A stretch of DNA of 64,000 nucleotides from Candidatus Hadarchaeota archaeon (GCA_964621445.1 CAZUNO010000002.1:13640-77639), one strand, 5' to 3'. Shown: positions 14,471 through 64,000, counted from the first letter of the stretch. Notes: generated from the letters alone by a model not told the origin. Program-made: numbers and translations.

Positions 14471-14882
14471 GGTTTATCCCGGATCATATTATACCAAAAG
14501 GTCTTATATAGATTCTGGAAAAAAGGGGACGGTAAAAGAGACCCCAAGGCGAAACAGGTTGAGAGGTTAGACCGTAGTTGAGAATCCCCTATTTCCCCTT
14601 TCCTGTGTCCATTTTGGAAGCCGACCGCGAATTCCTTGGGGTCTCGCAATTAAGGTAATTGTTACGTAAATATAGTGATTTTGTAGAAAGCGGATGTTAC
14701 CCCAACGTTGACCCTCTGATACAAGTAACCCACAACGCCTTAGCATATCAAACGGTAAAGGCTTGAGCCCAACGATCGTTATGATAATTTTTCTTTCAGG
14801 GTGAAAGGACTTAACAATATGAGAATTAAATCCCAGAACGCCAACCGGGTATACCGGGGCAGGCAATAGAGGAGATGATCTG

Positions 14883-18241: not shown

Positions 18242-18252
18242 ATCCAAATTCG

Positions 18253-35534: not shown

Positions 35535-37157
35535 ATGAGTAACGATAAAAAAACTAATTTTCTGTGGATATCATTTGAGGATACCAACCCCTTCTACGGT
35601 TGTTACGGTGACCACATCGCCCGCACTCCAAATCTTGATCGTCTTGCAGACGAGGGCTGCATATGGACCAACGCATTCTCCACCGCGGGCGTTTGTGCAC
35701 CCGCCCGCTCGGCCATAATAACCGGAATGTACCCCACCTCCATGGGCACTCATCACATGCGAACTACACATACCAACGAATTCGCTCCCGAATTACCCAC
35801 CCCATACTCAGCCGTAGTTCCCCATTACGTAACCTGTTTCACCGAGTACCTGCGTGCAGCCGGTTACTACTGCACAAATAACGTTAAAACCGATTACCAG
35901 TTCGATCCCCCCTTAACGGCCTGGGATGAATTGAGCAAAAACGGACACTGGCGTAATCGTCCAGATACCGAGCAACCTTTTTTCTCGGTATTCAACCTGG
36001 GACGCACCCATGAAAGTGGCATGTGGCCAGAGAAATGCCCCGAAATAGCTTTTGACCCCGATAAAATGGAATTGCCACCATATTTCCCGGACACGCCTAA
36101 GGTCCGCAGGGCCATGGCCCGAATGTATACCAACATCGAGCAGAACGACCGGGTTCTCGGGGATCTACTAGAACAACTTGAGGAAGACGGTCTGGCCGAG
36201 AATACGATAGTGTTTCACTGGAGCGATCACGGACCTCTGCCACGAGGCAAACGCTGGCCCTATGATTCCGGTATCCGCATTCCAATGATAATCCGCTGGC
36301 CAGGTAGACTGGAACCCGGAAGCGTGAATGAGAATCTGGTTAGCACCATTGACCTCGGTCCCACTGTACTATCACTCGCCGAAATCGATATACCCTGGCA
36401 TATGCAGGGGAAAGCATTTCTGGGATCACAAACCGGACCTAGCCGGGACTACATCTTTGCCAGCCGCGACCGGTATGACGAGTCCTATGACATGGTACGG
36501 GCCGTCCGGGACAAGCGCTTCAAGTACATCCGGAACTACTATCCTAACAAACCATACCTGCTCTGGATACCATACAGGAACAGGCATCCCATAGTACAGG
36601 AAATGTGGCGTTTGCACCTTGAGGACAAGCTAGAAGGAGCACAACGCCTGATGTTTCGGTCCCGGCCAGTAGAGGAACTCTATGATACACGACAGGATCC
36701 TCATGAAATTCATAATCTGGCGGATAACCCTGAATACCAACCGGAACTCAGGAGACTTCGTGAAGCCCTGGATGCTTGGATAAATGAGGTAGGGGACATG
36801 GGAGAAATCCCGGAAGAGGAGATGATACGCCGTTGGTACCCGACTGGGGAAAAACCACGCACCGCGCCACCATTATTTATTCCTATCACTAAGGATAACC
36901 CAGGGAAGGACCCAGCCCCACGTGGGGGAGAATATCAAGGGCCTTTTCTCATTCAGATCTATTGTGCCACGCAGGGGGCCTCTATCGCCTATACATTTGA
37001 TCAGGATGATAACCCCCATTGGCTGCTCTATACAAAACCAATTCGATTACCAGAGGGCGAGAACAGGCTGAGAGCTAAAGCAATTCGAATTGGGTACACA
37101 GAAAGCACGGAAAGAGCGGCAACCTTTTCCGTATCTAACCACGGATTGCCAGCTTAA
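35535..37157 (+). CDS. Sulfatase (Cys-type) with a C-terminal chitobiase/hexosaminidase-C-like beta-sandwich
   Basis: NFLWISFEDTNP, the C-x-P-x-R motif in AGVCAPARSAIITGMYP, WSDHGPLPRGKRW, ELYDTRQDPHEIHNL. The tail FLIQIYCATQGASIAYTFD...YTKPIRL resembles the CHB_HEX_C_1 domain. There is no signal peptide. Confidence 0.9.
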   Translation: MSNDKKTNFLWISFEDTNPFYGCYGDHIARTPNLDRLADEGCIWTNAFSTAGVCAPARSAIITGMYPTSMGTHHMRTTHTNEFAPELPTPYSAVVPHYVTCFTEYLRAAGYYCTNNVKTDYQFDPPLTAWDELSKNGHWRNRPDTEQPFFSVFNLGRTHESGMWPEKCPEIAFDPDKMELPPYFPDTPKVRRAMARMYTNIEQNDRVLGDLLEQLEEDGLAENTIVFHWSDHGPLPRGKRWPYDSGIRIPMIIRWPGRLEPGSVNENLVSTIDLGPTVLSLAEIDIPWHMQGKAFLGSQTGPSRDYIFASRDRYDESYDMVRAVRDKRFKYIRNYYPNKPYLLWIPYRNRHPIVQEMWRLHLEDKLEGAQRLMFRSRPVEELYDTRQDPHEIHNLADNPEYQPELRRLREALDAWINEVGDMGEIPEEEMIRRWYPTGEKPRTAPPLFIPITKDNPGKDPAPRGGEYQGPFLIQIYCATQGASIAYTFDQDDNPHWLLYTKPIRLPEGENRLRAKAIRIGYTESTERAATFSVSNHGLPA

Positions 37158-39577
37158 AGATCCTCGATTATCAGGGGATGAGCTGGGTCAGTGATTAACC
37201 ACTGGGGCAATCCCTTGTCAAGTGTAATGATCTCATAATTATCGGATTTATGCATCAGTATCTTCCAGAACCCCGGTTTGGATTCCCCCCGCGAAATAAG
37301 GATATGGGAAGATGACCCATGAACCTTGGGATTTTCCAAGCACCCCATATGCTCCTCATCCGGGGAAAAGACATCGGCTTTAGCTCCACTCTTGCCAAGA
37401 ATCAGGTTGAAGCTCTCCGTCCCTTCCGGTACGTGGAAATATAGGGGCAAATCTTCATCAAGGCACCTCCCATCCAGATCCAAGCCGTGAGGTGGAACAT
37501 GGAAAGCCATCCAAGCACCGTTAACCCTCATTTTCTCCAAGGCTGCCATACGGTACGGAGCTCTAAGAAAATAGACCTTGTTTGCCTTTCCCTGGAAGGT
37601 AATTGACCTTCCTTCGGCCACCATCCCGGTGTCAATCGATTTGCCCTTTTCATCTGTCAACACGTATTGTATAAATTCGGCCCTTCTATGGAATCTCTCA
37701 ATTTTGATCTTGACTGCTCCTTCGGACGAGCTGTATAGAAGCAAATCAATTCCACCCCTGCCCACTGGTACCAGGCAGTCCCTTGGACCTGTCTCACCCC
37801 CTATGGGCGGACTCTCCGTCACCGCCAACTCAGGGGGTTGAAAATCGATCTTTCTGGTTATCCTACATCCCTCTCGCTGATTTGCAAGAAGCTCATCGAT
37901 CTCATCCTCATCGAGGGTCAAAGGTGATTGGTAATCTGGCGGCAGGAAGCCGTAATCACGGAGGTTCCATTGGAGAAGTGACAAAACATGGCCAAAGATA
38001 TCCAGCCTTTTTTGTTGACTTGCCTTCTTCTCCACGGATAAGGCATCGAGATAGCAGCTCTCGATCTCTGGATAGAGGGGGGCATATAACTCCTCCAAAT
38101 GCCTCTCGGTGAGCAGGTATTTTGCACCTGAATTGCGGTTATAGAACCGAGAAAAGGCCCTATCGAGGAGACCGAAGAGTCTCTCCACGGATTTCCCTGC
38201 TTCATAACCATAGGCCTTCAGGTAATATTCGTGGAGTATCTCCCTCGCATCCTGGTCCGGGTTCCATAGCAGTCTGGCAATGGTATAGTTACCGGGACCA
38301 GAAACGGGCCAGACTGGGTTACCGTAGATATATCCTCCCTTGAAGCCATATTTAGACATATTTGAGAAGGTCGACTTCAGAAGCTCCGGTGACGGGGGGC
38401 ATATTATCCCATTTGGTTGCACCAGGGTCGTCGGCAGATCATAGTAGTAGATATCGAAGCCGTGTTTTCTTGATAGTTCACTCCAATCTCCCCATATGGA
38501 TTCGTCCCATCTTTGCTTGACCGAAGGACGATAGAGCCTGAAACCATAGGCAGGGCTATTGGGGATCACAAAGGCCAAGTTGGATTCAATATCCATTTCC
38601 TCGGAAGGCGGGTAACGATAATTCGCATACAGGTAACCCCCCAGCATGTGCTTCGGGAACTCCTTCTCCACAATCCGGGCCACATCGTTATAGAATTTCA
38701 AAACCAAAGGAGTAACCGAAATTTCACCATGGGGGTCAATTTCCTTAAGTGCCCCCGACTCCGGACTCTCGCTCCATGCCCCACCGTCGGCCGGTGATAG
38801 CGAGTACCACCGCCTTTTTGGATCCTCTCGAAATGCCTTGATGATTTTTTCGGCGAAATATTGGACCATCTCCTGGTTCGTGGTCTCCAGCTTGTAGTAT
38901 CGACCTATGGGCGGAACCCGATTTCCATCCCTCATGGCAAACCAGTCTGGGTGTTCATCGTAAAGAGAGGGAGGAACCGTCCTTATCCAACTATGATTAT
39001 GCTCGATTGGGCAGACCTGGTGCAATTTCATGCGCTTATCCCATTCGTCCTCCAGAGGGGCTTTGTCTCTAAACGAAATAACGCGGTAATCAAAGGGTGG
39101 ATGGTCTTCCCGGTCCATTTCGGGAATCACCAAATCTCCCATTTCCGTATATTCCTCCCCCATCTCACCCGGCATTAGCCATCGGACTTCTAGATATTCC
39201 TCAATGAATGAATACACTCCATTGGAAGTACCATGATTCACTCCTCCCTTGTCGTTAAGCTCCCCATCTGGCGTGTCGGGACCTAGAATGAAGAGATTGG
39301 AATCGAGAGCTACAATTCTGTAGCCATCAATGGGAATCTCCGAAGGGTCCAGCCCCTCTTCCCTGGCTGCGGCAGTGTAACCCAAACTGATATACGGATT
39401 GGAAGGTGGCTGCTCGGTGGATATAACCTCGGGTAAAGCTCCAGTCACCTTTCCAAAATAATTCCTTAGGTCCTTAGCCGCATTCCTTACGGATTCAGGA
39501 GCGGTTGGATCCAGGTAAATTGAATAATTGGTCTTTCTGTTCCGGACAATCGGGATTGATCCTCTTCCGGACTTCAA
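37154..39577 (-). CDS. DUF4838 domain protein (second, larger paralogue); no signal peptide
   Basis: GTSNGVYSFIEEYLEVRWLMPGE and overall colinearity with the N-terminal half of the 30751..32652 product. Its end overlaps the convergent sulfatase stop by 4 nt. Confidence 0.7.
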   Translation of the reverse strand: MKSGRGSIPIVRNRKTNYSIYLDPTAPESVRNAAKDLRNYFGKVTGALPEVISTEQPPSNPYISLGYTAAAREEGLDPSEIPIDGYRIVALDSNLFILGPDTPDGELNDKGGVNHGTSNGVYSFIEEYLEVRWLMPGEMGEEYTEMGDLVIPEMDREDHPPFDYRVISFRDKAPLEDEWDKRMKLHQVCPIEHNHSWIRTVPPSLYDEHPDWFAMRDGNRVPPIGRYYKLETTNQEMVQYFAEKIIKAFREDPKRRWYSLSPADGGAWSESPESGALKEIDPHGEISVTPLVLKFYNDVARIVEKEFPKHMLGGYLYANYRYPPSEEMDIESNLAFVIPNSPAYGFRLYRPSVKQRWDESIWGDWSELSRKHGFDIYYYDLPTTLVQPNGIICPPSPELLKSTFSNMSKYGFKGGYIYGNPVWPVSGPGNYTIARLLWNPDQDAREILHEYYLKAYGYEAGKSVERLFGLLDRAFSRFYNRNSGAKYLLTERHLEELYAPLYPEIESCYLDALSVEKKASQQKRLDIFGHVLSLLQWNLRDYGFLPPDYQSPLTLDEDEIDELLANQREGCRITRKIDFQPPELAVTESPPIGGETGPRDCLVPVGRGGIDLLLYSSSEGAVKIKIERFHRRAEFIQYVLTDEKGKSIDTGMVAEGRSITFQGKANKVYFLRAPYRMAALEKMRVNGAWMAFHVPPHGLDLDGRCLDEDLPLYFHVPEGTESFNLILGKSGAKADVFSPDEEHMGCLENPKVHGSSSHILISRGESKPGFWKILMHKSDNYEIITLDKGLPQWLITDPAHPLIIEDL

Positions 39578-43475: not shown

Positions 43476-45224
43476 TCAGGCGAATTCGATATCCACTATC
43501 TGGCCCTGTTCATTGAACGTCGCTCTGAAAATGGCCACATCGCTCGAGAGCTCCTCTCTGTATTCCTCCGCATCCCCCTGCAGAATCTTCCATAATACCT
43601 TCACTGATGTCTCTATCCCCCTACGCCCCAGTCCCCCGACCGCCAGCCGCTGGCCCTTTCCGTGCTCGGTGTAAAGGCATAGGTAACCCCAGCTGGAGGC
43701 ATTACCTCCCAACTTTGGAATGCCGGTCTTAATCTCCTCAAGGGAGGCTTCCCTCCCCGGCGACATGGCTCTAAAGCGAAGCCGGCCAGAAGATTCGGAT
43801 ATTTCTAGACGACCCTCCTGTGATATATAGCCGGAAACGAAGTTTGCATCAGGCCCTCCCATCCCTATCACATCACGGTACGTGTGCTGGGAATCCAGGG
43901 TGTATCTACCACCTGTTTTTGATGCCACTTGGCTATGGTTAAGAACTCGCACTTCAATGCCCTGGTCGCTAATTATATCACTGGTTTCATTCCCCCAGAT
44001 CTCCAGCTCGGATGCAGAGACAATACCCGTCGTATTACCACCATAGGTAATCTCCGTTACATTGCCCAAAAGGTTCCCGAGATGAAACAGGTCAACATCA
44101 AATTCCAGGTTTACCGAGCGCAATACCTGCCTCTTGCTTTCATTCGCAACCCAATACTCCGCGGCGAGAACGATACTTTCGGAACCCTCTGGTGAGATTT
44201 CAGCAACGGCCTCAAGCTCCCTCAGTTCACCTGGCCCCAGACTATCAACGGTGATGTTGCCGGATAACAATTGGGCGCCACCACTTTGCTTGTATAGGTT
44301 GATATTTGACACCGAACCCGTTCCTTGATTCCATATCCCAATCGGTATGGCGGCGGTATAGTTACCATTCGGGGAGGGATGGACCTTTGGGGAGGTATCC
44401 AAAGCTAGCGCCTGTAGTTCCGCCTGCACTATATCCCCTGATACCCAGCGCACCATGTTTAGCAAAAATTGGTTATTATCAAACGAGTTTAAAAATCGGC
44501 TGCTCCAGAGATCATTGTCACCTATACAAGCTATCCTTCCCTTTCCGTAGGTCGAGATGGCGGCTATGGTCTTTTTTCCCGTATCCTCGTCATCGTCAAG
44601 TTCCAGATCACCATCGGTGTCCGCCCATGATTCCTCTGAAGTCCAGGCCACGGGAGAAGCATTTCCGGAGGTCTGCAATGAACATCCCGCGTGATAACTG
44701 ATACGATCCAAACCATCGGTCACCTCATCTCCGGAGAATGCATCTATCATTGGCCAATGTGCATATCTGGAATCCGAGATAAAGGGATTATTCGGGTCGC
44801 AAATGGTATTTCTCTCAAAAATTATACCAAACTCCGAGGTTATCTCGTTCACCCTTTCACGGGCCCATGGCTGATACTTTGAGCTCGAACCCTGACCAGC
44901 GATAATCATGCCGTTTCCCTCGGACACGTAATCCAGAAGCATATCGATGTCATTGGACAGGCTACCACCATCCCTTGGCGTTATTAACAGTACGGAGACC
45001 AGATCCGTCAGGTTATCCGGATGAAGTTTTTGCACGCCGGTATAGGGACTTAGCAAGTGGGCCCTGAAGCCTATTTTATCAAATGATACCGCGGCATGCC
45101 AGTAATCATAAATGCTGAGCTGTTCCTCCATATGAGTCTCTATAAAGGCAGCAGTTGGTTTTTCAACCGAGGAAATTGGCACAGCCGAGAATATAATAAC
45201 CAGCAAGATCAGGCCGGAAATCAT
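43476..45224 (-). CDS. Extracellular GldG/DUF4350-like (GATase1-fold) protein with a C-terminal Ig/CARDB-like region
   Basis: TM/signal segment MISGLILLVIIFSAVPISS. I used the start at 45224; the track start at 45326 would overlap ileS by 83 nt. LLITPRDGG...LLDYVSEGNGMIIAGQG and GKGRIACIGDNDLWSSRFLNSFDNNQFLLNMVRWVSG match the GldG/DUF4350 pattern. Confidence 0.65.
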   Translation of the reverse strand: MISGLILLVIIFSAVPISSVEKPTAAFIETHMEEQLSIYDYWHAAVSFDKIGFRAHLLSPYTGVQKLHPDNLTDLVSVLLITPRDGGSLSNDIDMLLDYVSEGNGMIIAGQGSSSKYQPWARERVNEITSEFGIIFERNTICDPNNPFISDSRYAHWPMIDAFSGDEVTDGLDRISYHAGCSLQTSGNASPVAWTSEESWADTDGDLELDDDEDTGKKTIAAISTYGKGRIACIGDNDLWSSRFLNSFDNNQFLLNMVRWVSGDIVQAELQALALDTSPKVHPSPNGNYTAAIPIGIWNQGTGSVSNINLYKQSGGAQLLSGNITVDSLGPGELRELEAVAEISPEGSESIVLAAEYWVANESKRQVLRSVNLEFDVDLFHLGNLLGNVTEITYGGNTTGIVSASELEIWGNETSDIISDQGIEVRVLNHSQVASKTGGRYTLDSQHTYRDVIGMGGPDANFVSGYISQEGRLEISESSGRLRFRAMSPGREASLEEIKTGIPKLGGNASSWGYLCLYTEHGKGQRLAVGGLGRRGIETSVKVLWKILQGDAEEYREELSSDVAIFRATFNEQGQIVDIEFA

Positions 45225-45243
45225 CCGCCTCCTCCAAATCACT

Positions 45244-48200
45244 CTAGGGAGCCCTGATAGAGATACGATATTCATCACCCTCCAATTGCCAGCTCTTTTG
45301 ATATGACTCCTCCAATCCACGTCCAAAACTCAGCGATTTAGCCCTTGTCTCGGTGGATATATAATCCTCATAATCGGCAAGCCTATCCAGGCCAGGACCA
45401 TCCACTGCCACCTCGATGAAGTCGTCAACATCAAGATCCATATCCTTTCTCATATCCTGGACTCGCCTCACTATCTCCTTGGCCATGCCCTCGCGTTTTA
45501 AATCCTTGCTGAGCCTGCAATCAACGACCACGGTTCCAGAGGCGAATTCGGAATCCGAATAGTACTCAGGCATCTCCTTTTCAAAGGATACATGTTCAGG
45601 GCGCACCCGGAAATCCCTCTTTTCGGTGTGCAAGATGAAATAATCCTGTTCGTCAAAGGCCTCCTTCACTTCCTTAGGATCCGAATTCAGCAGCCCATCA
45701 ATTACCCGGTTTGCATCGGATCTAAACTCCCTCCCAATACTTGGGAGCTCTGGTTTTATCTCCAGCACGGATTCCACTTCATCCACACACTCAACCGACT
45801 TGCAGTTCGTCTGCTCCGTAAATACCCTATCCAGGTCCCGAAGGGCTTGCTTTACCTCCTGATCCTCGGTTTTCACCATTATCCTGCCCACCGGCTGTCT
45901 GAGCTTTATCCCTGCCCTCTGCCTAGCCGCCAGGGAGGATTCGACCAGTGATCTAACGATCGCCATGGAACCTTCGAGACTTGAATCGGTCAGGCCCTCA
46001 TCGGCAGCTGGCCAGCCCTGGAGATGAACGCTATCCGGCGTCGAGGAGCTCCTAACCAGCTTCTGGAAGATCTCTTCCGTTATATGTGGGGTTATGGGTG
46101 CCATGAGTCTCAGGAGGCGTTCGATTGCATAGTGGAGGCTGAAATAGCAGGCCAGCTTGTCAGGATCCTCGGACTCTATCCAGGTTCTATCCCTGGCCAG
46201 TCTGACGTACCACCTGCTGAGGTCGTCCAGGATGAATTTCTGGAGATCCCTGGTGGCATGCAGAAAATTCATCCCATCCAGGGACTCGGTCGTGCTCTCT
46301 ATGAGCGAGTTAACCCTCGATATGAGCCAACGGTCCTCCGGTCTCAGGTGGCCCTCGACCCGCGAGGCTTCAAAATTCCGGGGGAATTCATCCAGCTCCA
46401 TGTAGGTGGAAGCAAAGACGCAAACGTTCCAGAAGACGTTGATCATGCGCTGTATGGTGGTGAGTTCGTCGAAATTAAACTTCAGGTCCTCCCAGGGAAG
46501 GGTAGCCCATAGCAGGTAGTACCTGAACACATCTGCGCCAAACCTATCCACCACATCGTCGGGGTCAACTGCATTTCCCAGAGATTTGGACATCTTCCTG
46601 CCCTCGGCATTGAGGGAGAATCCGTGCATCAACACCTTTCTATAGCAGGATTCATCGAAGGTTATCACGCTCGCCGCCTGAAGGGAATAGAACCACTTGC
46701 CTACCTGATCTGACCCCTCCATGATGAGATCAGCCGGCCATATGGACAGGGCATCTGGATCTGAAGGGTAGCCAAGGGAACTCCAGGACGCTATCCCCGA
46801 ATCGAACCACACATCTATTATGTCTGGGATCCTTGTCATCCTCCCTCCACATTCGCATTCCAGTTCTATTCTATCTACGCTGGGCCTGTGAGGATCGAAA
46901 TTATCGGGATCTATCTCCGACGTGGAGAGCGAAGCCAGCTCCGTATATGACCCCACCACGGTCATCTTCCCGCAATCGCCACATATCCAGATTGGCATTG
47001 GTATTCCCCAATACCTGTTTCTGGAAAGACACCAGTCCCCTGCATATTCCACGCCGTTCTCATATCTCTCGGACACCCAATCGGGTACCCAATCTACATC
47101 CCCATTCTCCTCGATTATCCTGTCCTTTATCTTGCTTATCTCCAGGAACCATTGTTCCCTGGCCATGAAAAGCAGGGGCGTCTTGCATCGCCAACAGTGA
47201 GGATAGCTATGTTTAATTATTCCCTCGTGGACGTAATAACCGCTTGACTTAAGGTCCTCTATCACCAGGGGGTCGGCATCCTTTACGTACATGCCGTTGT
47301 ACTTGCCGCCCTCTTCGGTGAATCTACCGCCGGCGTCCAGGGGCGAAAAGATCGGTGCCCCTACCTCGCGGCCTACCTCAAAGTCCTCCTCACCATGTCC
47401 AGGTGAGGTATGAACACAGCCGGTTCCCTCCTCGAGATCGACGTATTCCGCCAGGACCAGTCGGTGAAATTCATCCGCCCACTCCCCTTGCTTCGGGACC
47501 TGCTCCAGAAGCGGGTGTTCATATTGGAGACCCTCCAGTTCCGTTCCCGGCATGGTCTCCAAAATCTGGTAATCTTCTATCCCCGTCTGCTCCATAACCC
47601 TTTCCACGAGCTCGGAGGCCATTATCCACTTCTCATCCCCCACCAATACCCTGGCATACTCGAAATCGGGCTTTACCATAACCAATAGGTTTGAGGGAAG
47701 TGTCCATGGAGTAGTGGTCCACACCAGGACGTATTGGTCTGTAGCGTCCCTAATCTTGAATTTGATATAGATGGATGGATCCTCTCGGTCTTCATAAGCC
47801 CCCCTGACCTCATGTTCAGCTAGAGCCGTCTCACAGCGAGGGCACCAGTGCACTACTCTTACATCCTGAACCAGCAGGCCCTTTTCATAGGCCTTCTTTA
47901 TGGTGTCCCAGCCGGCCTCCATGTACTTGGAATTGAATGTGACGTAGGGATCGTCCCAATCCATCCACACGCCAAGCCTCTTAAACTGATCGGTCATGGT
48001 CTTCAAGTGGCTCTGGGCATAACTCTTGCAGGCATCGATGAACTTTTCGACCCCAACCACGTCCTCGATATCCTTCTTGCTTTTCAGATCGAGTTCCTTC
48101 TCCACCTTAACCTCGATGGGAAGTCCATGGGAGTCCCATCCAGGCTGCCTCCTCACGTTCTTCCCCTTCATTGATAGATATCTGAGCACCGCTCCCTTGA

Positions 48201-54351: not shown

Positions 54352-54948
54352 GTGAAGATAATGCTTAAGATAGAGAGGCAAAGGGAGACGAAGGAGACGG
54401 ATGTATCCATTACCATGGATTTTGATGGATCCGGAAAATCCTCGATAAGTACCGGACTACCCTTCTTCGACCACATGTTAACCTCCATGGCCAGACATGG
54501 AAGGATAGACACCGAGATAGATGTTGAGGGGGATCTTGATGTAGACGACCATCACGTTACCGAGGACGTGGGAATAGTTCTCGGCGAGGTGATCCTGCAG
54601 GCCCAAAAGGAAAGACCCTCGATCCGACGCTTTGGGAGCGCCATAATACCCATGGATGATGCGCTTATACTCATGGCCATTGACCTTGGGGGCCGGACCT
54701 ACGTGGATCTAAAGGTCGACTTCAAGAAGGAGTATGTCGGAAGCTTCGTCCTGGATAACATCAAGCACTTCATGAGATCGATGGCCGATACCGCCTACAT
54801 GAATCTCCATGCACACAAGTTATCGGGCAGCGACGATCACCACCTGGCGGAGGCACTATTCAAGAGCCTGGGAATAAGCCTCTCCCAAGCCCTGAAAAAG
54901 GATCCCTCACTCTCCGGAGAGATTCCCAGCACCAAGGGCAGGATCTAG
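54352..54948 (+). CDS. hisB: Imidazoleglycerol-phosphate dehydratase
   Basis: RETKETDVSITMDFDG, TGLPFFDHMLTSMARHG, DLDVDDHHVTEDVGIVLG, GSDDHHLAEALFKSLG. It begins immediately after the hisA stop. Confidence 0.9.
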   Translation: MKIMLKIERQRETKETDVSITMDFDGSGKSSISTGLPFFDHMLTSMARHGRIDTEIDVEGDLDVDDHHVTEDVGIVLGEVILQAQKERPSIRRFGSAIIPMDDALILMAIDLGGRTYVDLKVDFKKEYVGSFVLDNIKHFMRSMADTAYMNLHAHKLSGSDDHHLAEALFKSLGISLSQALKKDPSLSGEIPSTKGRI

Positions 54949-55610
54949 GACGCTTCATTTCTTAGGGCTTTTAGGATAAGGAAAATGGCCACCCTTATCC
55001 CGCACCACACGGTAACCCCCCGCACGTACTTTTCATACTTTACCGGTACCTCCTTTACCCGTAGACCCTTGCGCCTCGCCTCGTACAGCAGCTCCGACTC
55101 TATCTCGTACTGGTTGGCGGTTAGGTCCATTCCTTCAAGAGCCGAGGCTCGTATGGCCTTCAACCCGCTCTGGCTATCCCTGACTGGGTTTCGAGTAATC
55201 GCATTGGTCAGCTTGGTAAGTCCCCAGTTCCCGATCCTCATGATAAGGGGCGCCGAATCGAAATAATTGACCCGGTTTCCCAGAACTATGTCCGCCTCGT
55301 CATTGAGGATGGGCTCCACCAGGTTGGGGATGTCACTCGGGTAGTGCTCGCCATCACCGTCAAGCCTTAGAATGATCTCGGCGTCGTATTCCTCCGCTTT
55401 CTCCAGCCCTTTCCTGTATGCTGATCCAACTCCCTGGTTCCTATCGATCTTGAACACCTTAGCCCCTCCCGCAGTCGCCTCCTGGGAGGATAGATCGGTG
55501 CTCCCATCATCGATCACTATAACGTTGTCCACATACTTTGAGGCCTCACGGGCTATTTCCTGAATGGTTTTCTCCTCGTTGTGGACCGGGATCACGCAAA
55601 TGGTCTTCAA
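54945..55610 (-). CDS. Family-2 glycosyltransferase, polyprenyl/dolichyl-phosphate sugar synthase-like (DPM1/ArnC-like)
   Basis: VIPVHNEEKTIQEIAREA, VIVIDDGSTD, LRLDGDGEH (DxD-type), a short C-terminal hydrophobic helix, and 221 aa. Confidence 0.8.
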   Translation of the reverse strand: MKTICVIPVHNEEKTIQEIAREASKYVDNVIVIDDGSTDLSSQEATAGGAKVFKIDRNQGVGSAYRKGLEKAEEYDAEIILRLDGDGEHYPSDIPNLVEPILNDEADIVLGNRVNYFDSAPLIMRIGNWGLTKLTNAITRNPVRDSQSGLKAIRASALEGMDLTANQYEIESELLYEARRKGLRVKEVPVKYEKYVRGVTVWCGIRVAIFLILKALRNEAS

Positions 55611-56416: not shown

Positions 56417-57568
56417 ATGGCCGAGGCCCAATCGATCTGGAAGATGGCCTTTAGGAACCTCTCGAATCAGAACAAGACCACTATACTAACAGTGGCGGCC
56501 ATAGCAGTCTGTGTGATGACCTTTGTCTCCATCTTCTCAATCCTCGACGGCCTCCAGTTGTCCGTTGAGAAGGTAATTAGAGGCTTCTACGGGGAGGAAG
56601 GTAGAAGTGCATATGTACTTCCCGCTTCGGATGAAATCGAACAGGGACTTATACCCCGTGCGGTGGCCGAGGAATATAGAGGACTTGATGATGTATACGG
56701 CCTTTCCGAGGAGGATGTGGTGAATTCTTACTACCAGGGAAGAGAGGTGGACCTTCTCGGAGTTAATCTGGATGACCTTGACGCCACCCACGGATTCCAG
56801 GGAATTGATGGCAGGAGCATGGAGAAGGGACCGGAATGCATGGTGGGCTCCACGGCCGCCGAAATACTTGGCATAGATGTCGACCAAGAGATATCATTGG
56901 AACTGGATGACAGCACCGTCGACCTTTTGGTTACGGGAATATACGAGGCCAAGACGTCCCTCAATGCGAATATCCTGGTGAATAACGAATTCCTTTCCTC
57001 CAGAATTCCCCGGTTTAAGGTCAATACCTCCATGCTGCGTATTAAGCTCAAGACGGGAAACCTGGAATCGGTAGCCGAATTCACCGAGGAAAACCACCCC
57101 GAACTCAGAATCAAGGAATCTGTTCAGGTGAGCAAGTTCTTCCAGAAATCCATCATAAACATCTCCCGCCTTCTCAGCACCATCATTATTTTCGTTATAC
57201 TGCTGATGGTCCTTGGTATATACAATTCAATGAACATGGTGGTTTCGGAGCGAAAAAGGGAAATTGGGATAATAAGGGCTATGGGAGCCAGGAGGTCCTT
57301 CATAGTCAAACTGTTCATGGCCGAAAGTACTATGCTTTCACTTCTAGGGGGCTTATTCGGGGTCGGGTTGGGAATAGCCATGTCGCATGGAATCACATCG
57401 ATCTTTTCCATCTTCGTTGCCGGTTCCTCATCTGTCGCTCCCCTCACCAAGCTCACCACCATTGGCTGGGCCATGTTTGCCTCCCTGTCGATAGGGCTAA
57501 TTGGAGGAATTTCCCCGGCAAGTAATGCCTCCAAGGTGGAAATCTCAAGAGCCCTCACGGAGGTGTGA
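56417..57568 (+). CDS. ABC transporter permease, FtsX/MacB-type (TM1, periplasmic-core-like domain, FtsX TM2-4)
   Basis: MAFRNLSNQNKTTILTVAAIAVCVMTF, an extracytoplasmic domain of ~210 aa, then SERKREIGIIRAMGARRSFIVKLFMAES...LIGGISPASNASKVEISRAL. Confidence 0.85.
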   Translation: MAEAQSIWKMAFRNLSNQNKTTILTVAAIAVCVMTFVSIFSILDGLQLSVEKVIRGFYGEEGRSAYVLPASDEIEQGLIPRAVAEEYRGLDDVYGLSEEDVVNSYYQGREVDLLGVNLDDLDATHGFQGIDGRSMEKGPECMVGSTAAEILGIDVDQEISLELDDSTVDLLVTGIYEAKTSLNANILVNNEFLSSRIPRFKVNTSMLRIKLKTGNLESVAEFTEENHPELRIKESVQVSKFFQKSIINISRLLSTIIIFVILLMVLGIYNSMNMVVSERKREIGIIRAMGARRSFIVKLFMAESTMLSLLGGLFGVGLGIAMSHGITSIFSIFVAGSSSVAPLTKLTTIGWAMFASLSIGLIGGISPASNASKVEISRALTEV

Positions 57569-60500
57569 ACATAGAGAGCCGTCTTCTCCATGCCATGAAG
57601 ATATTTCCTCGTCACAGAATGTGGCTATCCTTAGCCGGGATAATGGTATGCGCCATTCTCTTCTTCGGGGTGCTCTCCGTGGTTCACTGGCTTAGCTATT
57701 CCTCAACCTCCTACTTCGGAGAGCAAGAGGGCATATACGTACTGGCGCAGGAGGAGGCGGCCACCGTCAAACAATCACAAGTTCCCCTCGCCCTGGCTCC
57801 GGCACTAACCAGGATGAATGGAATCCAGGTGGTTTGCCCCGAACTCTTCATATATGGGGTGTTAAATGATAAGGCTGTCATAATCCGTGGGATATTCCCA
57901 TCGGATTTCCAATCACTTGAACCGGTCACCCTGATTCAAGGGCGGTGGCTCAGGGACGACGATATCAAGGCCGCCGTGGCTGGCCAGAATCTAGCCCGAA
58001 AACTGGATCTGAAGGTGAACGATACCTACCTGCTTTCAGGATCCGAGGTTGATGACTTCGTCAGGATCAGGATCGTGGGCATCTTCAAGGGAGGGGGAAT
58101 GATTGATGACGACCTACTCATGAACATACACTACGCCAGGTATCTCCAACAGGAAACACAACCCGGTTATGCCTCAATAATCCGGGCCAAGGTCAACACC
58201 ACCATCTGGCCCAGCGTAGAAAGCATCTGGCAATCGGTCAGCGGACTTCCCAATATAACGCCGCTCCAATATGAACCAACTGCTCCCAACAACACCCAGA
58301 GACTGCATTTCACCTGCAATGCCACAGCTCATACCGAAGTGGGCTCGGTCATACTCTACTACAAAAAGCAGGGTCTCCATCGCACAATCCAAAAGACCAT
58401 GATAAAGGGAAATTCAAGTCAGTTTAGGACCCAGATCGGCCCTGTGAAGGACTCCTCATGGGTACTTTGTTGGGCCAACGCCACTGATATTTTGGGCCAC
58501 GATCGACGGACGCCTGAGGTTAACATCTCAATAACAGATGCCCTGGGACCGGACATATTCGATCTGACAATTGAACCGCCCCCGCCCCAGACAAAGGATC
58601 ACCTGGTAAACGTCTCCTTCAAGGTATTCGATACAAGCGAAATGGTCAGGAACGTAACCGTCCACACATATAATGTTGGACTTAATCGTACATTCCACGG
58701 AAAGGACTCCACGGGGCGGGCTTACGAGCTAACCCTGGGAAGGTTTGAACCGGGACCATTGACCCTTTGGATATCCGCCCGGGATAGATTCGGCAATCTG
58801 GCACGAACGGCTCGATACAGGTACAGGATCCTCAATAGGACCGATCAATCCCCTCCCGAAATAGGTGAGATGGTATTCGAGCCTGACCCCCCGAATGACA
58901 ACTCCACCCTGACCGTGAACGTTCCAATGTTCGATGACTCAGAGATCGTTACCGCCGACCTTATCTATGACTATCAGGTCAAGGGCATTCACTACAATGG
59001 GACCCTTAAGATGAATAGAAGCCAGGCCCAGGAGGGCCTTTGGGAAGCGGTAACCGGTTCCTTTCCGGGTGCCACAACGATTCATTTCAGGATATTCGCC
59101 AGGGACCAATTCGGGAACGCCGTATACTCGGAGACCAGGGATGTATTCGTGAGATACTCGGAGCCACCGGAGGAGCTCCAGGTCTACAGATTCCCCCAAT
59201 ATTCCACTCCCGGCCTCAATAATCTGGTATTCGCCGTTCTCTACGACGCGGCGGAGATCCAGGAGGTCAACTTCACCTTCGTGGAAGCGGGTAGATGGAC
59301 CAACCTCTCCATACCCGTGGGGATAACTACCTTTAGGGAACCCTTTCTCCTGGGGCGCCTATCAACCGGGTTCAAGGAATATAATCTCTCCATGGAGGAC
59401 AGGCGGGAAGAGGTGACCAGATATCCAGGACAGGGACTGGAAGGGTTCCTTGTTCAGCGAAAAAGACCCCACATAGAGGATATACAGTATTCCTCGACTG
59501 TAAGGAAGGGCTTTCCCCTAATGGTGACCTTCAGGGCAGTCGGCGTCTTCCCACTAAGCGAGGTATATACCACCGACTCCAGAGGGGTAGTGGAAAAATG
59601 CGAAAGGATTGAGGGTGAATATACCGCGATCCTGGGTCCATACTCCAAGCCGGGTGACTACTCCTTCAGTATAACTACCCAGGACTGGGCGGGCAATACA
59701 CGGACCATTGAAGACCGGGAATTCACCGTAGAGGAGGAATCGATAACCGATATCGACTTCACGCCAAAACCGCCCATTCTGGGAGAGGAGCTAACCGTGA
59801 CCTGTAGGGTGATCGGGGACTCTCCCCGCAAGAAGGTCCGGCTCATAGCACCTGTGGGCGGCAAGTACGTGTTGACTCCAATGGAATTGGAGGAGGGGAG
59901 GAGATTCGCGTCCATACCCATCGATAGCCCTGGTATTCTACCCTTCTCGGTACAGGTCGAGGATGGAGAGGATCTGATACGCTCAAAAACCGTACGGCTT
60001 AACGTCGGTTCCAACCACTCATCATTGTACCTGGCTCACAGCCCACCCCATCCTCTGAGTACCCAGAATATAACAATCTCCATCTTTGCCAGGTCGGGTC
60101 ATAACCTGAAATCGCTGGAACTGGAATGGAAAAATGGATCCCACGAGATTCCACATCGCAAGGTCTGGAGGCTAGAGGGGACGGAAACGAGATTAGACTT
60201 CAAACCGGGAAGGCAAATAGAGGGGACCCTTCTTTACAGGGCAATTCTTACCACTGAAATGGGTAGCCTTACCTATCCCCTGACGGAGGACGAGTGGCTC
60301 GGGATCTCCATCACCAAAAACCTGTTTACCCCCCCGGAAATTGGAAGATTATCCCTATCCCCCCAGACTTACGTGGGACTGGATGGGAACAGGGGACAGG
60401 ATTTCCTTGTTGAGGTCGGTTGCCCAATTTCCTTTGACCAGGGTATATCCTCGGTTGAGATAGATTACGTGGTAGACCAGAGAACCTATAACGAGCCACT

Positions 60501-63500
60501 CCTACCGGTTTCCCGGAAATACGGGCTCTCCTCAAGGTTTTATTCAGCCTATCTCGGTCCCTTCCCCACCAACGAGACCATAAGTTGTCAGGTCACTGCC
60601 AGAAGCATCTCGGGATTGGAATCCTCCACCCCGGAGGTGAGCTATGTCCTCCGGGATACGGAACCTCCGGAGATACAGGATATATATCACGACCCCCTAC
60701 ACCCTGAACCCAAAAAGGAAATAACCATTGGGTGCGAGGTAACCGATGACTCGGGTGTCAAGGACGTTTTGCTGCTGTACGGCGGCAATGGCACCCAAAA
60801 TGCAGAGCGCATGATGCGGTACGGAAATACCTACACTCTGGACCTTCTCTCCCCGCCCGCGGGCGAATCCCTCACCTATGCAATACAGGCCACGGATAAC
60901 TACGGCAACAGCAACCAGTCCTTGCCGGGTACCGTTACCTCTAGGGACGAAACCCCACCCGATATATGGGAGGTCACCCATGACCCGCTGGAACCAACGG
61001 ATAATGACAGCGTCAACATAACCGTCCGACTCATCGATCGGCAGGATGAAATCGAAAACGTGACCCTACTCTGGTACCAGTACACCTGGAAGAACCAGAC
61101 CAAGAAGGGGGGCAGCGGGTACATTACCAGGGTATTCCAGATCGATGCCTCTGAGTTTGACCCGGGAATGAACGTACGGTACAAGATCGAGGCCTTTGAC
61201 CGTTCGGGAAACAAGGCGGTCTACCCCAACGTAGAGCAGGGAGAAACGCCTCCTTCTCCACTTCTCTATGGCGATAATCCTAATTCCCTGAGACAGGAAG
61301 CATGGGAACCCTATCTCACCTTCCGGGTTGTCGACAGATCCCCTCCCGTTCTCACCCTTGATGCCCAGCCCGAAAGTCCAAATGAACTTGAAACCGTTAC
61401 CTTCGAGGTGTCAGCGGAGGACAATCACCTTCTCAGGAACTACACGCTTCACCTATGGGTGTCAGGGGTTTACAGGCCTTTCAGCGAGCAGGTAGGTCGT
61501 CCTAGCTTCAGGGACGAGTTCTCCTCCGGTCCCCTAGAACCGGCATCCACCATAGTTTGCTATCTTGAGGCATACGACAGGTCCGGTAATTATGCCCGGT
61601 TTCCGGCTCGCTCCAACCTTACCATAGATGTGGAGAGGTTCGAATGGGGAGGCGAGATGGCCGCCGTCGATCCCAGGGTTGACCTTGAAGTCGCCGGCCC
61701 GGCCGGTTTTTCTCAGGGAATGGCCAGACAGGGAGCGGGAAAGATAATCGCCAGCATAAATGGCATCCTTTTCATGACCTTTCTGGCCACCGTGGCCGGC
61801 ATCGGCAATATAGTCTACACCTCGGTTTTCAAATCGAAGAGGGAAATAGGCCTGGTCCGAACATTAGGGGGGAGCAAGAAATTCGTCACCCTTCTGGTGG
61901 CCTCGGTTACCGTCCTGCTGGGCCTGACCGCTGCCTTGATCGGGTGTGTAATTGCCTACCTGCTGATAACGGTGTTTTCTAACCTAGGAGCCTCCCTTGC
62001 CTGGGTCACCTTGAAGCCCACATTCAATATCCTTATTCTGGCAGCGACTTCAGCGGCCGCGGTGACCATTAGCCTCTTCGGTGGAATGGTAGCCCTTACC
62101 AGGCTTTTTTCATATACCCCTGTGGAATCGATAAGGACGGTGACCGCGCCCCAAGCGAAGAGGGAGCATCCAACCTACATCGAGAATACAAGGCGTTTCC
62201 CCGCAAAGACCATCGCCGTTTTACTCCTCATCACCATTAGTGCCGCTGCCATGATGCGCCTATATCCTACATATATCTCCGAGCAGCCCTTCGATCCCGA
62301 TTCCTGGTTGCACCTAACCGCTGCATCCGATATGCGGGAGACCGGCCATCTGAGACTCGATTACGCTTCCCGGGAAATGCAGGCGGTCAGCGCCCTCCCT
62401 GGCCTCAACATCCTGCTGGTCGTATCCCAGGTATTGACCGGGAGCGAGATGATCCCAGCGAGGATCATAACCCCCATCATATCATCACTTGGCTTGATCC
62501 TGGCCTTTGTACTGGCCAGGAAACTCTCCAGGAGCGATATCGTGGCAGGAATGACCGCGATCATACTGGCAGTGGTTGGCTTTTATGCCAACCGAACGGC
62601 AGCGCTTACCAAGGAGGCCCTCGCACTCCAGATGCTCCTACTCTGCCTCTACATGTTATACCTAAGCCACATCTCCAGAAGCACCAAGCACAAGACTCTG
62701 CTAGTTGCCATTTCCGTTGCCCTGATGCTGACCCATCACCTAACGGCCATCTATTTCATGCTGATTTTTGTGGGATACATCTTTCTGAGAATCTTCCACA
62801 AGTATTCCCAGGGTGTCATCGACCCCCTGGAGGTCAAGCAGGATGCCCTAACCGGTCTTGGGGTCCTAACCAGCTATCTTATCATCAGCTTCACCCTGGG
62901 CAAGTACGAAACTCCGATACCATTCCAGGACTCCCTTCTGATAATATCCCTGTTCTTCGTGACCATCGGATTCGGAAGAATTTTGCTTTCGTCATCATTC
63001 TTGGGCCAGCACCGGAGATCTATATCCCTGGTCGCAGCCCTGGGTACGGTTACCTTCCCCTTCATCGCCTACCGCGCCGGGCTCTTCTCCTACGCACCAT
63101 GGGAACAGGTCCTCCCCATGATAGCCCCCCACTTGTCCCTTCTGGCCATAGCGATCCTGGCCCTGTTCCCGGTCTCCCTGCTCTCAGAAAATCGAAAGTC
63201 CTTCATCTTGGCCTGGGCCTCTGCCGTGATTCCCTTCCTATTATTTGGACTTGTCAAAAGGGATATCTTCGGCTACATACTGCTCTTCAGGAACATCTCA
63301 TACGGTTATCAACTATCGGCCATATTGGTAGGCATCGCCTTCGTCTATGCCTACAAGCGTTTCGAGGCCGGAGGTCAGGATGGAATCCGCACCGGGCTGG
63401 TTGCCATAGCCGCGGTGCTCCTCATGACCAACCTTCTATTCGCCTCCCACATGGGTTTTCTGTCCCGCCCTTATGAGAAGAAGGACCTATACACGACCAC

Positions 63501-63861
63501 GGAGTTCAACGCGGCCTTGAAGGTGAACCAATCAACCCTAAGAGGTCAGCTGGTAGGGTCGGACGAACGTGGTCGCCGGCTTCTATTGTACGTAACTGGG
63601 GAGGATGGAGACCAGATCACGACCTACGTCTATATGATCAGGATGGAAAAATGGTTAATAAACAGGCTTAACGAACAGGTCAACTTGACCGAGAAGCCGC
63701 TGACCCATATCCTCACCTATGACGAGATGTTTGAGGTCGGTTTCGTGGATCAGGTACTGTTCAAGGATGTGGAAAGGCTAGAGCTCAATCGATATGAGGA
63801 CGTCATTCTGGACAACGGCGGTGAACACCTCATTTACGTGGCCAGGAAGGAATGGCCGTAG
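57565..63861 (+). CDS. Giant (2098 aa) fusion protein: an FtsX/MacB-type permease interrupted by ~11 Ig-like repeats and fused at the C-terminus to a 13-14-TM GT-C-like (ArnT/PMT-like) glycosyltransferase domain
   Basis: It is one continuous ORF, and its GTG start overlaps the upstream stop (GTGTGA). The N-terminus is TM1 plus a MacB_PCD-like domain (IIRGIFPSDF...AVAGQNLARKLDLKVNDTY...IVGIFKGGG). Nt ~58200-61640 hold ~100-aa repeats. Nt ~61740-62140 hold the FtsX TM2-4 (SKREIGLVRTLGGSKKFVTLLVAS...). From nt ~62200 there is a polytopic domain whose first external loop is EQPFDPDSWLH. Confidence 0.85.
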   Translation: MNIESRLLHAMKIFPRHRMWLSLAGIMVCAILFFGVLSVVHWLSYSSTSYFGEQEGIYVLAQEEAATVKQSQVPLALAPALTRMNGIQVVCPELFIYGVLNDKAVIIRGIFPSDFQSLEPVTLIQGRWLRDDDIKAAVAGQNLARKLDLKVNDTYLLSGSEVDDFVRIRIVGIFKGGGMIDDDLLMNIHYARYLQQETQPGYASIIRAKVNTTIWPSVESIWQSVSGLPNITPLQYEPTAPNNTQRLHFTCNATAHTEVGSVILYYKKQGLHRTIQKTMIKGNSSQFRTQIGPVKDSSWVLCWANATDILGHDRRTPEVNISITDALGPDIFDLTIEPPPPQTKDHLVNVSFKVFDTSEMVRNVTVHTYNVGLNRTFHGKDSTGRAYELTLGRFEPGPLTLWISARDRFGNLARTARYRYRILNRTDQSPPEIGEMVFEPDPPNDNSTLTVNVPMFDDSEIVTADLIYDYQVKGIHYNGTLKMNRSQAQEGLWEAVTGSFPGATTIHFRIFARDQFGNAVYSETRDVFVRYSEPPEELQVYRFPQYSTPGLNNLVFAVLYDAAEIQEVNFTFVEAGRWTNLSIPVGITTFREPFLLGRLSTGFKEYNLSMEDRREEVTRYPGQGLEGFLVQRKRPHIEDIQYSSTVRKGFPLMVTFRAVGVFPLSEVYTTDSRGVVEKCERIEGEYTAILGPYSKPGDYSFSITTQDWAGNTRTIEDREFTVEEESITDIDFTPKPPILGEELTVTCRVIGDSPRKKVRLIAPVGGKYVLTPMELEEGRRFASIPIDSPGILPFSVQVEDGEDLIRSKTVRLNVGSNHSSLYLAHSPPHPLSTQNITISIFARSGHNLKSLELEWKNGSHEIPHRKVWRLEGTETRLDFKPGRQIEGTLLYRAILTTEMGSLTYPLTEDEWLGISITKNLFTPPEIGRLSLSPQTYVGLDGNRGQDFLVEVGCPISFDQGISSVEIDYVVDQRTYNEPLLPVSRKYGLSSRFYSAYLGPFPTNETISCQVTARSISGLESSTPEVSYVLRDTEPPEIQDIYHDPLHPEPKKEITIGCEVTDDSGVKDVLLLYGGNGTQNAERMMRYGNTYTLDLLSPPAGESLTYAIQATDNYGNSNQSLPGTVTSRDETPPDIWEVTHDPLEPTDNDSVNITVRLIDRQDEIENVTLLWYQYTWKNQTKKGGSGYITRVFQIDASEFDPGMNVRYKIEAFDRSGNKAVYPNVEQGETPPSPLLYGDNPNSLRQEAWEPYLTFRVVDRSPPVLTLDAQPESPNELETVTFEVSAEDNHLLRNYTLHLWVSGVYRPFSEQVGRPSFRDEFSSGPLEPASTIVCYLEAYDRSGNYARFPARSNLTIDVERFEWGGEMAAVDPRVDLEVAGPAGFSQGMARQGAGKIIASINGILFMTFLATVAGIGNIVYTSVFKSKREIGLVRTLGGSKKFVTLLVASVTVLLGLTAALIGCVIAYLLITVFSNLGASLAWVTLKPTFNILILAATSAAAVTISLFGGMVALTRLFSYTPVESIRTVTAPQAKREHPTYIENTRRFPAKTIAVLLLITISAAAMMRLYPTYISEQPFDPDSWLHLTAASDMRETGHLRLDYASREMQAVSALPGLNILLVVSQVLTGSEMIPARIITPIISSLGLILAFVLARKLSRSDIVAGMTAIILAVVGFYANRTAALTKEALALQMLLLCLYMLYLSHISRSTKHKTLLVAISVALMLTHHLTAIYFMLIFVGYIFLRIFHKYSQGVIDPLEVKQDALTGLGVLTSYLIISFTLGKYETPIPFQDSLLIISLFFVTIGFGRILLSSSFLGQHRRSISLVAALGTVTFPFIAYRAGLFSYAPWEQVLPMIAPHLSLLAIAILALFPVSLLSENRKSFILAWASAVIPFLLFGLVKRDIFGYILLFRNISYGYQLSAILVGIAFVYAYKRFEAGGQDGIRTGLVAIAAVLLMTNLLFASHMGFLSRPYEKKDLYTTTEFNAALKVNQSTLRGQLVGSDERGRRLLLYVTGEDGDQITTYVYMIRMEKWLINRLNEQVNLTEKPLTHILTYDEMFEVGFVDQVLFKDVERLELNRYEDVILDNGGEHLIYVARKEWP

Positions 63862-64000
63862 GTGCTTGTCTTGGAGAGATCTTTGGCCATCAGAGTAGAC
63901 ATCGACACCATCAAGGGGCTCTTGGATGGGGTCCCCATTCTACTGGACATGTTCGACGACCTGGGAATCCAGGCCACGTTTTTCGGCTGTGTGGGGCCGG
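63862..64000 (+). CDS. ArnD-like polysaccharide deacetylase/deformylase; only the N-terminal 46 codons are present and the gene runs off the window end
   Basis: Manual translation from GTG 63862: (V)LVLERSLAIRVDIDTIKGLLDGVPILLDMFDDLGIQATFFGCVGP. It is strikingly colinear with the N-terminus of E. coli ArnD as I remember it ([38 protein letters not shown]). Confidence 0.6.
   Translation, partial: MLVLERSLAIRVDIDTIKGLLDGVPILLDMFDDLGIQATFFGCVGP

Follow-up and report, generated by a model that had tools for sequence, protein, structure and literature searches.

A MacB/LolCE-type ABC permease fused to a predicted GT-C glycosyltransferase in Candidatus Hadarchaeota and its proposed part in extracytoplasmic glycosylation

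What does a single archaeal protein do that carries both the permease domains of an ATP-binding cassette (ABC) transporter and a second set of membrane helices at its C-terminus? The question is raised by an open reading frame (ORF) of 2098 amino acids (aa) in a stretch of 64,000 nucleotides (nt) from a Candidatus Hadarchaeota archaeon (GCA_964621445.1, CAZUNO010000002.1:13640-77639), which is called the window here. We found that the fusion is a genuine single polypeptide with 17 transmembrane (TM) helices (4 + 13). The N-terminal part represents subunit ‘B’ of a type VII ABC permease (MacB/LolCE type). The C-terminal module is well supported, by a predicted structure and by profile comparison, as a GT-C glycosyltransferase from a mostly archaeal family that had no name so far. 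Together with its neighbors, the protein likely forms an ATP-coupled machine for extracytoplasmic glycosylation that resembles the three-component systems, with a donor, an acceptor and a role of the ABC part that we infer. What is new is the unnamed GT-C family and the link between a membrane glycosyltransferase and a type VII ABC machine. Our literature search found no description of an FtsX/MacB–GT-C fusion or association. The coordinates of all features are collected in Table 1.

The C-terminal module was modeled with AlphaFold2 on an alignment of 94 sequences, resulting in a predicted local distance difference test (pLDDT) score of 92.6 and a predicted template modeling score (pTM) of 0.93; a model based on a shallow alignment of six sequences (pLDDT 46) was discarded. 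The retained model shows 13 TM helices, further helices in the first loop on the outside and, at the C-terminus, an alpha/beta tail of 132 aa. In a Foldseek search against the PDB, the top 27 matches (E 5e-10 to 7e-3) are all GT-C enzymes, and unrelated folds appear from E 1.6e-2 on with low probability. The 17 best hits are STT3/AglB/PglB structures (E 5e-10 to 4e-6, template modeling score (TM-score) 0.53-0.63), followed by DPY19 (E 3e-5, TM-score 0.54), AftA (E 1e-4, 0.39), ArnT (E 1.5e-4, 0.42), ALG12/ALG9 (E 4e-4 to 2e-3, 0.38-0.45) and Pmt4 (E 2e-3, 0.40).

An exhaustive hmmsearch revealed 247 distant relatives at E <= 1e-3. A word-indexed homologue search was far less sensitive, with five and then 20 hits that at first comprised close relatives only. 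Most relatives stand alone and have a length of 520-560 aa. All that are named by their sources appear as ‘hypothetical protein’ and originate from metagenome-assembled genomes (MAGs) of Thermoplasmatota and Nitrososphaerales, with a generic ABC permease label in some cases. In Pfam, eight out of 70 distant relatives weakly touch PMT_2 and one touches GT-C_AftD; the window protein itself has no match to PF13231 or PF02366 above the gathering score. The family profile nevertheless retrieves proteins annotated as PMT_2 (E 2e-11), PMT/GT39, DUF2206 and DUF6541. When the family (66 sequences) was aligned profile to profile with four PMT_2/GT39 proteins in hhalign, the result was 98.6% (E 6e-16, 356 columns), compared to 64% with only the six close orthologues. 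Profile searches of the PDB with the broad family and with the PMT_2 set returned only noise, with STT3 at E = 1.4. The structures nearest to the module are oligosaccharyltransferases, and the nearest sequence family is PMT_2. An earlier note on this DNA, made from the sequence alone, had already proposed a GT-C module of 13-14 hydrophobic helices followed by a tail of about 130 aa, and both the fold (significant structural matches to GT-C enzymes only, and the hhalign score) and the helix count agree with that proposal.

Candidate active-site residues were derived from conservation among the distant relatives. Nine residues stand out: D1579 (85/86), H1724 (84/86), R1909 (83/86), P1612 (82/86), G2059 (77/86), H1725 (74/86), D2000 (72/86), K1683 (67/86) and E1684 (64/86). 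The first of these is located in a stretch (FDPDSW, residues 1576-1581, encoded by nt 62290-62307) that corresponds to a family motif P-[FYW]-x-x-D-[SGA]-[WF], with PFHLDSW as the version in the distant fused protein P0185. In the AlphaFold model D1579 lies at the N-terminus of the first helix in external loop 1 (EL1) and is predicted to lie outside, and we propose it as the catalytic Asp. The earlier note had pointed to an acidic D-x-D in this loop as the catalytic hallmark. This can be retained for the second Asp only, which faces outward and is found in 87/87 ungapped aligned sequences, against 7/94 for D1577; the D-x-D as such was rejected.

FtsX domains have an N-in, C-in topology. Following the model helices from there, 26 Lys and Arg residues in short loops are predicted inside versus 12 outside, in line with the positive-inside rule that the note had invoked. 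The FDPDSW loop is assigned to the outside rather than to the cytoplasm, as is every conserved polar residue (D1579, K1683/E1684, H1724/H1725, R1909 and D2000).

Compared to the solved GT-C enzymes (STT3/AglB/PglB of GT66, DPY19, AftA, ArnT of GT83, ALG9/ALG12 and PMT of GT39), the module has the common 13-TM fold with the N-terminus inside, helices and an invariant Asp in the first external loop, and an external C-terminal domain. It differs by a single Asp where PMT and PglB have DE or DxD, by a distinctive invariant HH (THHLT) motif, by the very small size of the external domain, by the covalently attached ABC permease, and by the lack of a curated family match and of a WWDxG motif.

A candidate for the supply of the sugar donor is encoded nearby on the opposite strand. 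The 221-aa product is a GT2 glycosyltransferase (Pfam Glycos_transf_2, E 3.4e-25) that matches the Pyrococcus dolichyl-phosphate (Dol-P) mannose synthase 5mlz (E 3e-12) and ArnC (E 1e-5) in the PDB. Its NCBIfam matches are AglJ (8.5e-35), PpgS (3e-26) and Dol-P hexose transferase (3.5e-20), all under the equivalog cut-offs. In Haloferax, AglJ initiates the Dol-P-linked N-glycan (PMC3871713). The position of the GT2 gene is kept in two further Hadarchaeota loci (L002 and L003), and GT2 genes also occur near L009 and L012. We propose that this enzyme would make the lipid-linked sugar donor. A polyprenyl-phosphate-linked donor is also hinted at, indirectly, by the invariant R1909 and by a relative with a fused GT2. 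Transfer of a single sugar is favored by the adjoining GT2, which is similar to Dol-P-mannose synthase (DPMS) and AglJ.

The structural neighbors suggest another use of the same genes, in which the module is an oligosaccharyl- or polysaccharyl-transferase that passes a pre-assembled glycan as a whole from its dolichol carrier to a protein or another acceptor. The glycan would then be built by the AglJ-like GT2, a GT4 and other enzymes of the cluster, with the ABC part supplying or flipping it, as PglK does for PglB. The TM-scores of the 17 STT3/AglB/PglB structures (against 0.42 for ArnT) speak for such an enzyme, and so do AglJ as the best NCBIfam match of the GT2, the additional GT4, deacetylase and UDP-sugar dehydrogenase in the L002 cluster, and the density of N-x-S/T sequons in the immunoglobulin (Ig)-like array that is fused to the module. 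We still consider it unlikely. The 13 TM helices and the C-terminal external domain follow the layout of oligosaccharyltransferases, but the domain is merely 132 aa long and the loop after TM9, which corresponds to EL5 in these enzymes, is short (about 7-25 residues, as read from the model), whereas oligosaccharyltransferases have a long, flexible EL5 with an acidic TIXE/SVSE motif and a large external domain with a DK/MI motif. The protein contains no WW dipeptide and, as had been noted before, no WWDxG, which is also absent from all six frames of the window; membership of the oligosaccharyltransferase family was rejected for this reason. Sequence profiles tie the family to PMT_2/GT39 and not to STT3, which the PDB profile search reached only at noise level, and MacB-type ABC systems are not known to us as lipid flippases. 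The earlier preference for an ArnT/PMT-like enzyme over an oligosaccharyltransferase is thus upheld by the profile comparison and by the missing motif, but not by the best structures.

The ABC half of the fusion is clearly recognizable. MacB_PCD is matched at E 8e-13 (49.6 bits, cut-off 27, profile positions 2-181 of 207) and FtsX at E 8.7e-9 (35.9 bits, cut-off 25.5), while TM1 has a hydropathy peak of 2.55. The cytoplasmic loop between FtsX and the GT-C module (residues 1509-1550) contains seven Lys or Arg residues. In unfused loci, a stop and a restart with a 4-nt gap or overlap are found at the position of this linker.

Two further genes complete the predicted transporter. The first encodes an ATPase (Pfam ABC_tran, E 4.8e-31) with NCBIfam matches to LolD (4.9e-68), the MacB nucleotide-binding domain (4.3e-67) and FtsE (4.5e-62). 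Its translation has an intact Walker A (GPSGSGKTT), signature (LSGGEQQR), Walker B-Glu (LLADEPT) and H-loop (VSHD), and a LolD/MacB-type ATPase is kept in L002, L005, L007 and L009. The second encodes FtsX-A, an ordinary permease with FtsX (3.8e-17) and MacB_PCD (4.4e-11) domains in Pfam. FtsX-A clusters with the ‘A’ paralogues of other loci and not with the fused ‘B’ part. The A and B paralogues form distinct lineages across loci, and it is always B that is adjacent or fused to the GT-C module, with the same junction.

The combination recurs in other archaea. Among Hadarchaeota, L002 and L003 encode the full set of ATPase, FtsX-A and FtsX-B fused to GT-C. In Thermoproteota, L005 and L009 have an ATPase, an FtsX and an FtsX fused to GT-C but lack the Ig-like insert; P0185 is likewise fused with no insert. 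A fused version with a short insert is encoded by L006. The Thermoplasmatota MAGs L007 and L010 contain two FtsX genes and a separate GT-C gene that are contiguous with a 4-nt abutment. A divergently transcribed ATPase gene precedes the FtsX pair in L007, and the short contig of L010 has a GT4 gene upstream and no ATPase gene. GT2 or GT4 genes accompany the set in the majority of loci. The association of ABC permease and GT-C module is older than the present fusion. By Rosetta-stone logic, its conservation as a fusion or as adjacent genes points to a functional coupling of the ABC set and the glycosyltransferase.

Other relatives of the GT-C module have different partners. P0073 (1061 aa) carries an N-terminal MatE/MOP-type domain and P0102 (1119 aa) a GT2, and these two fusions represent further Rosetta-stone links to the synthesis and translocation of lipid-linked sugars. 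P0076 (1020 aa) has an unassigned extension of about 480 aa. Membrane proteins with DUF1616 (PF07760) are encoded beside members of the family in L006 (4050-4391), L007 (1036-1920) and L009 (5893-6465), and in P0063 DUF1616 is fused to the GT-C relative.

Between MacB_PCD and TM2, the window protein contains a large insert. The insertion point follows from P0185, which has no insert, and from P0007, in which it is about 180 aa long, and because of these relatives the insert is regarded as a lineage-specific accessory. An iterated hidden Markov model (HMM) detected 11 repeat domains each in the window protein, P0006, L002 and L003. The repeats share the consensus PPxI...D.sgV..V.L.Y...GP...A.D..GN and have weak Ig-like matches (SiiE BIg at 2.8e-4, Dscam, titin, Big_13 and Big_7). 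The insert contains 28 N-x-S/T sequons where 7.9 +/- 2.5 are expected (about 3.5-fold enrichment), and the whole ectodomain 30 versus 8.5, a count reached in none of 2000 shuffles (0/2000). In the insert region of the three orthologues there are 24-27 sequons against about seven expected. This enrichment would imply selection for dense N-glycosylation of the external array. It is consistent with the insert being a heavily N-glycosylated external structure, and supports its predicted location outside.

Two kinds of known systems resemble parts of this locus. The first are three-component systems for extracytoplasmic glycosylation, exemplified by bacterial GtrA/GtrB/GtrC (PMC8035078, PMC11127046) and by Haloferax AglD/AglR/AglS, an archaeal route consisting of a GT2, a flippase and a GT-C enzyme (PMC3871713). 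As in both, the gene for a GT2 polyprenyl-phosphate sugar synthase adjoins that of a GT-C enzyme predicted to act outside the membrane, and the relatives that carry a fused GT2 or MatE/MOP-type domain are in keeping with this arrangement. The difference lies in the place of the flippase, which is taken here by an ATPase and two FtsX permeases, one of them fused. No GtrA-, SMR- or MOP-type flippase was found among the ORFs at 44-64 kb of the window or downstream in L002, where two further ORFs were considered as membrane proteins or flippases and rejected.

The second are type VII systems such as LolCDE, MacAB, FtsEX and YbbAP-TesA, which have in common the MacB_PCD + FtsX permease and the LolD-like ATPase; two paralogous permeases are likewise found in LolC/LolE. 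YbbAP is reported to extract membrane lipids and to present them to the enzyme TesA (PMC12646458), and is a precedent for a type VII machine that hands membrane lipids to an enzyme. In contrast to these systems, the present one is archaeal, its partner is an integral-membrane glycosyltransferase on the C-terminus of the permease instead of a soluble periplasmic protein, and the external domain carries an inserted Ig-like array of about 1125 aa.

The following mechanism can be proposed. The AglJ/DPMS-like GT2 would charge dolichyl phosphate with a sugar on the membrane's cytoplasmic side, after which the lipid-linked sugar would get to the outer leaflet. There, the GT-C module would move the sugar onto an acceptor outside the cytoplasm, for which a glycan or glycoprotein of the cell surface is the most likely candidate. 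The LolD-like ATPase, in two copies, would assemble with FtsX-A and FtsX-B into a heterodimeric ABC complex that acts as a mechanotransducer and is held against the GT-C module. At the expense of ATP, this complex may act on the dolichol-linked donor or product in the outer leaflet, by extraction, presentation or clearance, or may drive the extracellular step in another way. In its most specific form, which we put forward tentatively, the protein would be the first case in which a GT-C enzyme is physically connected with an ABC mechanotransducer of type VII (MacB/LolCE-like), with ATP driving the extraction, presentation or recycling of an outer-leaflet dolichol-linked sugar for extracytoplasmic transfer.

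Several points weigh against this proposal. We know of no MacB-type transporter that flips lipids, and of no type VII system that works with a glycosyltransferase. The last 568 aa of the protein, as well as those of close orthologues, have no match in Pfam or NCBIfam even at E <= 10, and the last 568 aa have none among the PDB sequences with either a single sequence or a six-sequence profile. Because no curated GT-C model matched, the GT-C assignment rests on the family profile and the predicted structure, and the closest structural neighbors in Foldseek are oligosaccharyltransferases, not mono-glycosyl transferases. The FtsX-A/FtsX-B heterodimer is proposed only from the order of the genes and from the conservation of the two paralogue lineages. 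Finally, the family members L008 and L012 are located in sugar-nucleotide clusters with no nearby ABC genes, which indicates that the enzyme does not generally need the ABC part.

This last observation also fits a protein whose halves work independently. FtsX-A, FtsX-B and the ATPase would then act as an FtsEX- or MacB-like mechanotransducer that moves or regulates the Ig-like array, or as an exporter, and the GT-C module would merely be tethered to them, for co-localization or stoichiometry, and use no ATP in glycosyl transfer. Type VII ABC systems are reported to act typically via extracytoplasmic domains on partner proteins (PMC12646458), and the Ig-like insert sits in exactly this extracytoplasmic domain. 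The association is however kept where the insert is absent (P0185, L007, L010), which means that the insert is not the reason for the link between ABC permease and GT-C module. In addition, every fusion has paralogue B as its permease part and is joined at the same place. Independent halves therefore seem improbable to us.

A GT-C-fold module that has lost catalysis and serves the ABC complex as an anchor or for the binding of dolichol or lipid might explain why no curated GT-C model matches and why neither D-x-D nor WWDxG is present. This is very unlikely given that D1579, H1724, R1909, H1725, D2000, K1683 and E1684 are near-invariant in the 86 relatives, a pattern typical of a selected active site.

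That both halves belong to one protein is supported by the integrity of the reading frame. The ORF listing and the translation give 2098 codons with a GTG start and no internal stop. The GTG overlaps by 4 nt with the TGA of the upstream FtsX gene and is directly preceded by GGAGG, and the starts of the orthologues lie no more than about 10 codons away from it. An exhaustive profile search found P0006 (2095 aa), a cluster of five full-length copies from NCBI, JGI, ENA and Logan. A scan of GTDB genomes added three MAG loci labeled as Hadarchaeota or ‘uncultured Thermococci’ with identical gene order. Two of these, L002 and L003, encode ORFs of 2079 and 2125 aa with the same architecture and no stops, so that the full-length orthologues, which come from independent assemblies and MAGs, span 2079-2125 aa. 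The third locus, L004, contains a 5′-truncated copy; its ORF of 1375 aa was considered as a short-insert variant and rejected, as it holds only the last six repeats. The fragment P0001 has an unbroken frame from the end of the insert via FtsX into the C-terminal module. The FtsX/GT-C junction is hence continuous in P0001, P0006, L002 and L003, and internal stops are absent from all four. Fusions also exist among more distant relatives, namely P0007/P0176 (1120-1126 aa) and P0185 (935 aa).

The contig L001 is collinear with these loci except for a run of N at the junction. This run (about 4365-4470 in the ENA contig bearing P0002) is the cause of a 509-aa ‘stand-alone’ protein reported by the gene caller, which is consequently no evidence for an unfused form. 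That the long ORF is an artefact of assembly, sequencing or an annotation merging separate FtsX and membrane-protein genes, as the separate genes in Thermoplasmatota and the N run in L001 might suggest, is hardly credible and was rejected, because orthologues from independent sources (P0001, P0006 in five copies, L002 and L003) have uninterrupted frames and more distant fused forms exist. The single polypeptide for which the earlier note had argued is thereby established, with its parts in the stated order of TM1, MacB-like core, insert, FtsX, basic linker, hydrophobic block and tail.

Table 1. Position of the features in the window (nt, counted from its first letter).
Feature	Position	Strand	Basis
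GT2 glycosyltransferase, 221 aa, polyprenyl/dolichyl-phosphate sugar synthase-like	54945..55610	-	Pfam, PDB, NCBIfam
ABC ATPase, LolD/MacB/FtsE type, 233 aa	55659..56360	-	Pfam, NCBIfam
FtsX-A, 383 aa, ordinary MacB_PCD + FtsX permease	56417..57568	+	Pfam
Fusion ORF, 2098 aa: FtsX-B permease with inserted Ig-like array, joined to predicted GT-C glycosyltransferase	57565..63861	+	translation, Pfam, AlphaFold, Foldseek
TM1 (residues 20-40) and MacB-like periplasmic core (residues 20-198)	57622..58158	+	Pfam, hydropathy
Insert on the extracellular side, tandem array of 11 Ig-like beta-sandwich repeats, ~95 aa each (residues about 229-1353)	58249..61623	+	iterated HMM
FtsX domain, TM2-TM4 (residues 1401-1518), including cytoplasmic coupling-helix motif KREIGLVRTLGGSKKF	61765..62118	+	Pfam, hydropathy
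Basic cytoplasmic linker (residues 1519-1546; basic stretch from 1514), FtsX TM4 to GT-C TM1	62119..62202	+	charge, hydropathy
Predicted GT-C transmembrane domain, 13 TM helices (residues 1547-1966), unnamed archaeal family	62203..63462	+	AlphaFold2, Foldseek, hhalign
First external loop motif PFDPDSW (residues 1575-1581), D1579 codon 62299-62301	62287..62307	+	conservation, model
C-terminal extracytoplasmic alpha/beta domain (residues 1967-2098) and stop codon; D2000, G2059	63463..63861	+	model secondary structure
CE4 polysaccharide-deacetylase-like gene, 5′ end, cut by window end	63862..64000	+	similarity to L002 deacetylase

The gene downstream of the fusion is only present with its first 139 nt. 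It starts 1 nt after the stop of the fusion, and its translation (LAIRVDIDTIKGLLDGVP...) matches the N-terminus of the deacetylase in L002. The conserved RVDIDT motif stands at its very start, and a signal peptide or TM helix is absent, for which reason the product is probably cytoplasmic. Polysacc_deac_1 and GT4 genes were identified with Pfam at L002, L003 and L004, the GT4 gene following that of the deacetylase in the syntenic loci. Further downstream, L002 encodes an exosortase/archaeosortase-family (EpsH) membrane protein (14052-14882, minus strand) and a protein of the UDP-glucose/GDP-mannose dehydrogenase family (17814-19112, plus strand), which suggests a wider neighborhood for the biogenesis of the cell surface.

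Elsewhere in the window there are two DUF4838 proteins (30751-32652, plus strand; 37154-39577, minus strand), a sulfatase with an SGSH_C domain (7304-8698, plus strand) and a DUF5696 protein (873-3056, plus strand). Such genes resemble a set for glycan degradation and are odd beside the archaeal housekeeping genes for RadA, an RPA-like protein, IleRS, GatA and HisA/HisB. An ORF of 771 aa (23601-25916, plus strand) has no Pfam match at E <= 1e-5. A protein of 616 aa (43476-45326, minus strand) has an N-terminal hydrophobic segment and a DUF4350 domain containing a GATase1-like region; as listed, the IleRS ORF overlaps it with its start region.

GT-C enzymes and MacB-type ABC machines have each been well studied separately. 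How polyprenyl-phosphate sugars arrive at, and exit from, extracytoplasmic glycosyltransferases is a long-standing gap, for which the conserved fusion offers a concrete candidate. If the proposed mechanism is true, it would be an energized alternative to the passive flippase of the three-component systems, kept in fused or unfused form in Hadarchaeota, Thermoproteota and Thermoplasmatota, and it would give FtsX/MacB-type systems in archaea a first function. In addition, about 250 clusters (at 50% identity) are brought together here as an archaeal GT-C family that lacks annotation and has the motifs P-[FYW]-x-x-D, K-E, H-H and R. For the uncultured Hadarchaeota themselves, the sequon-packed Ig-like array suggests a large glycosylated surface structure.

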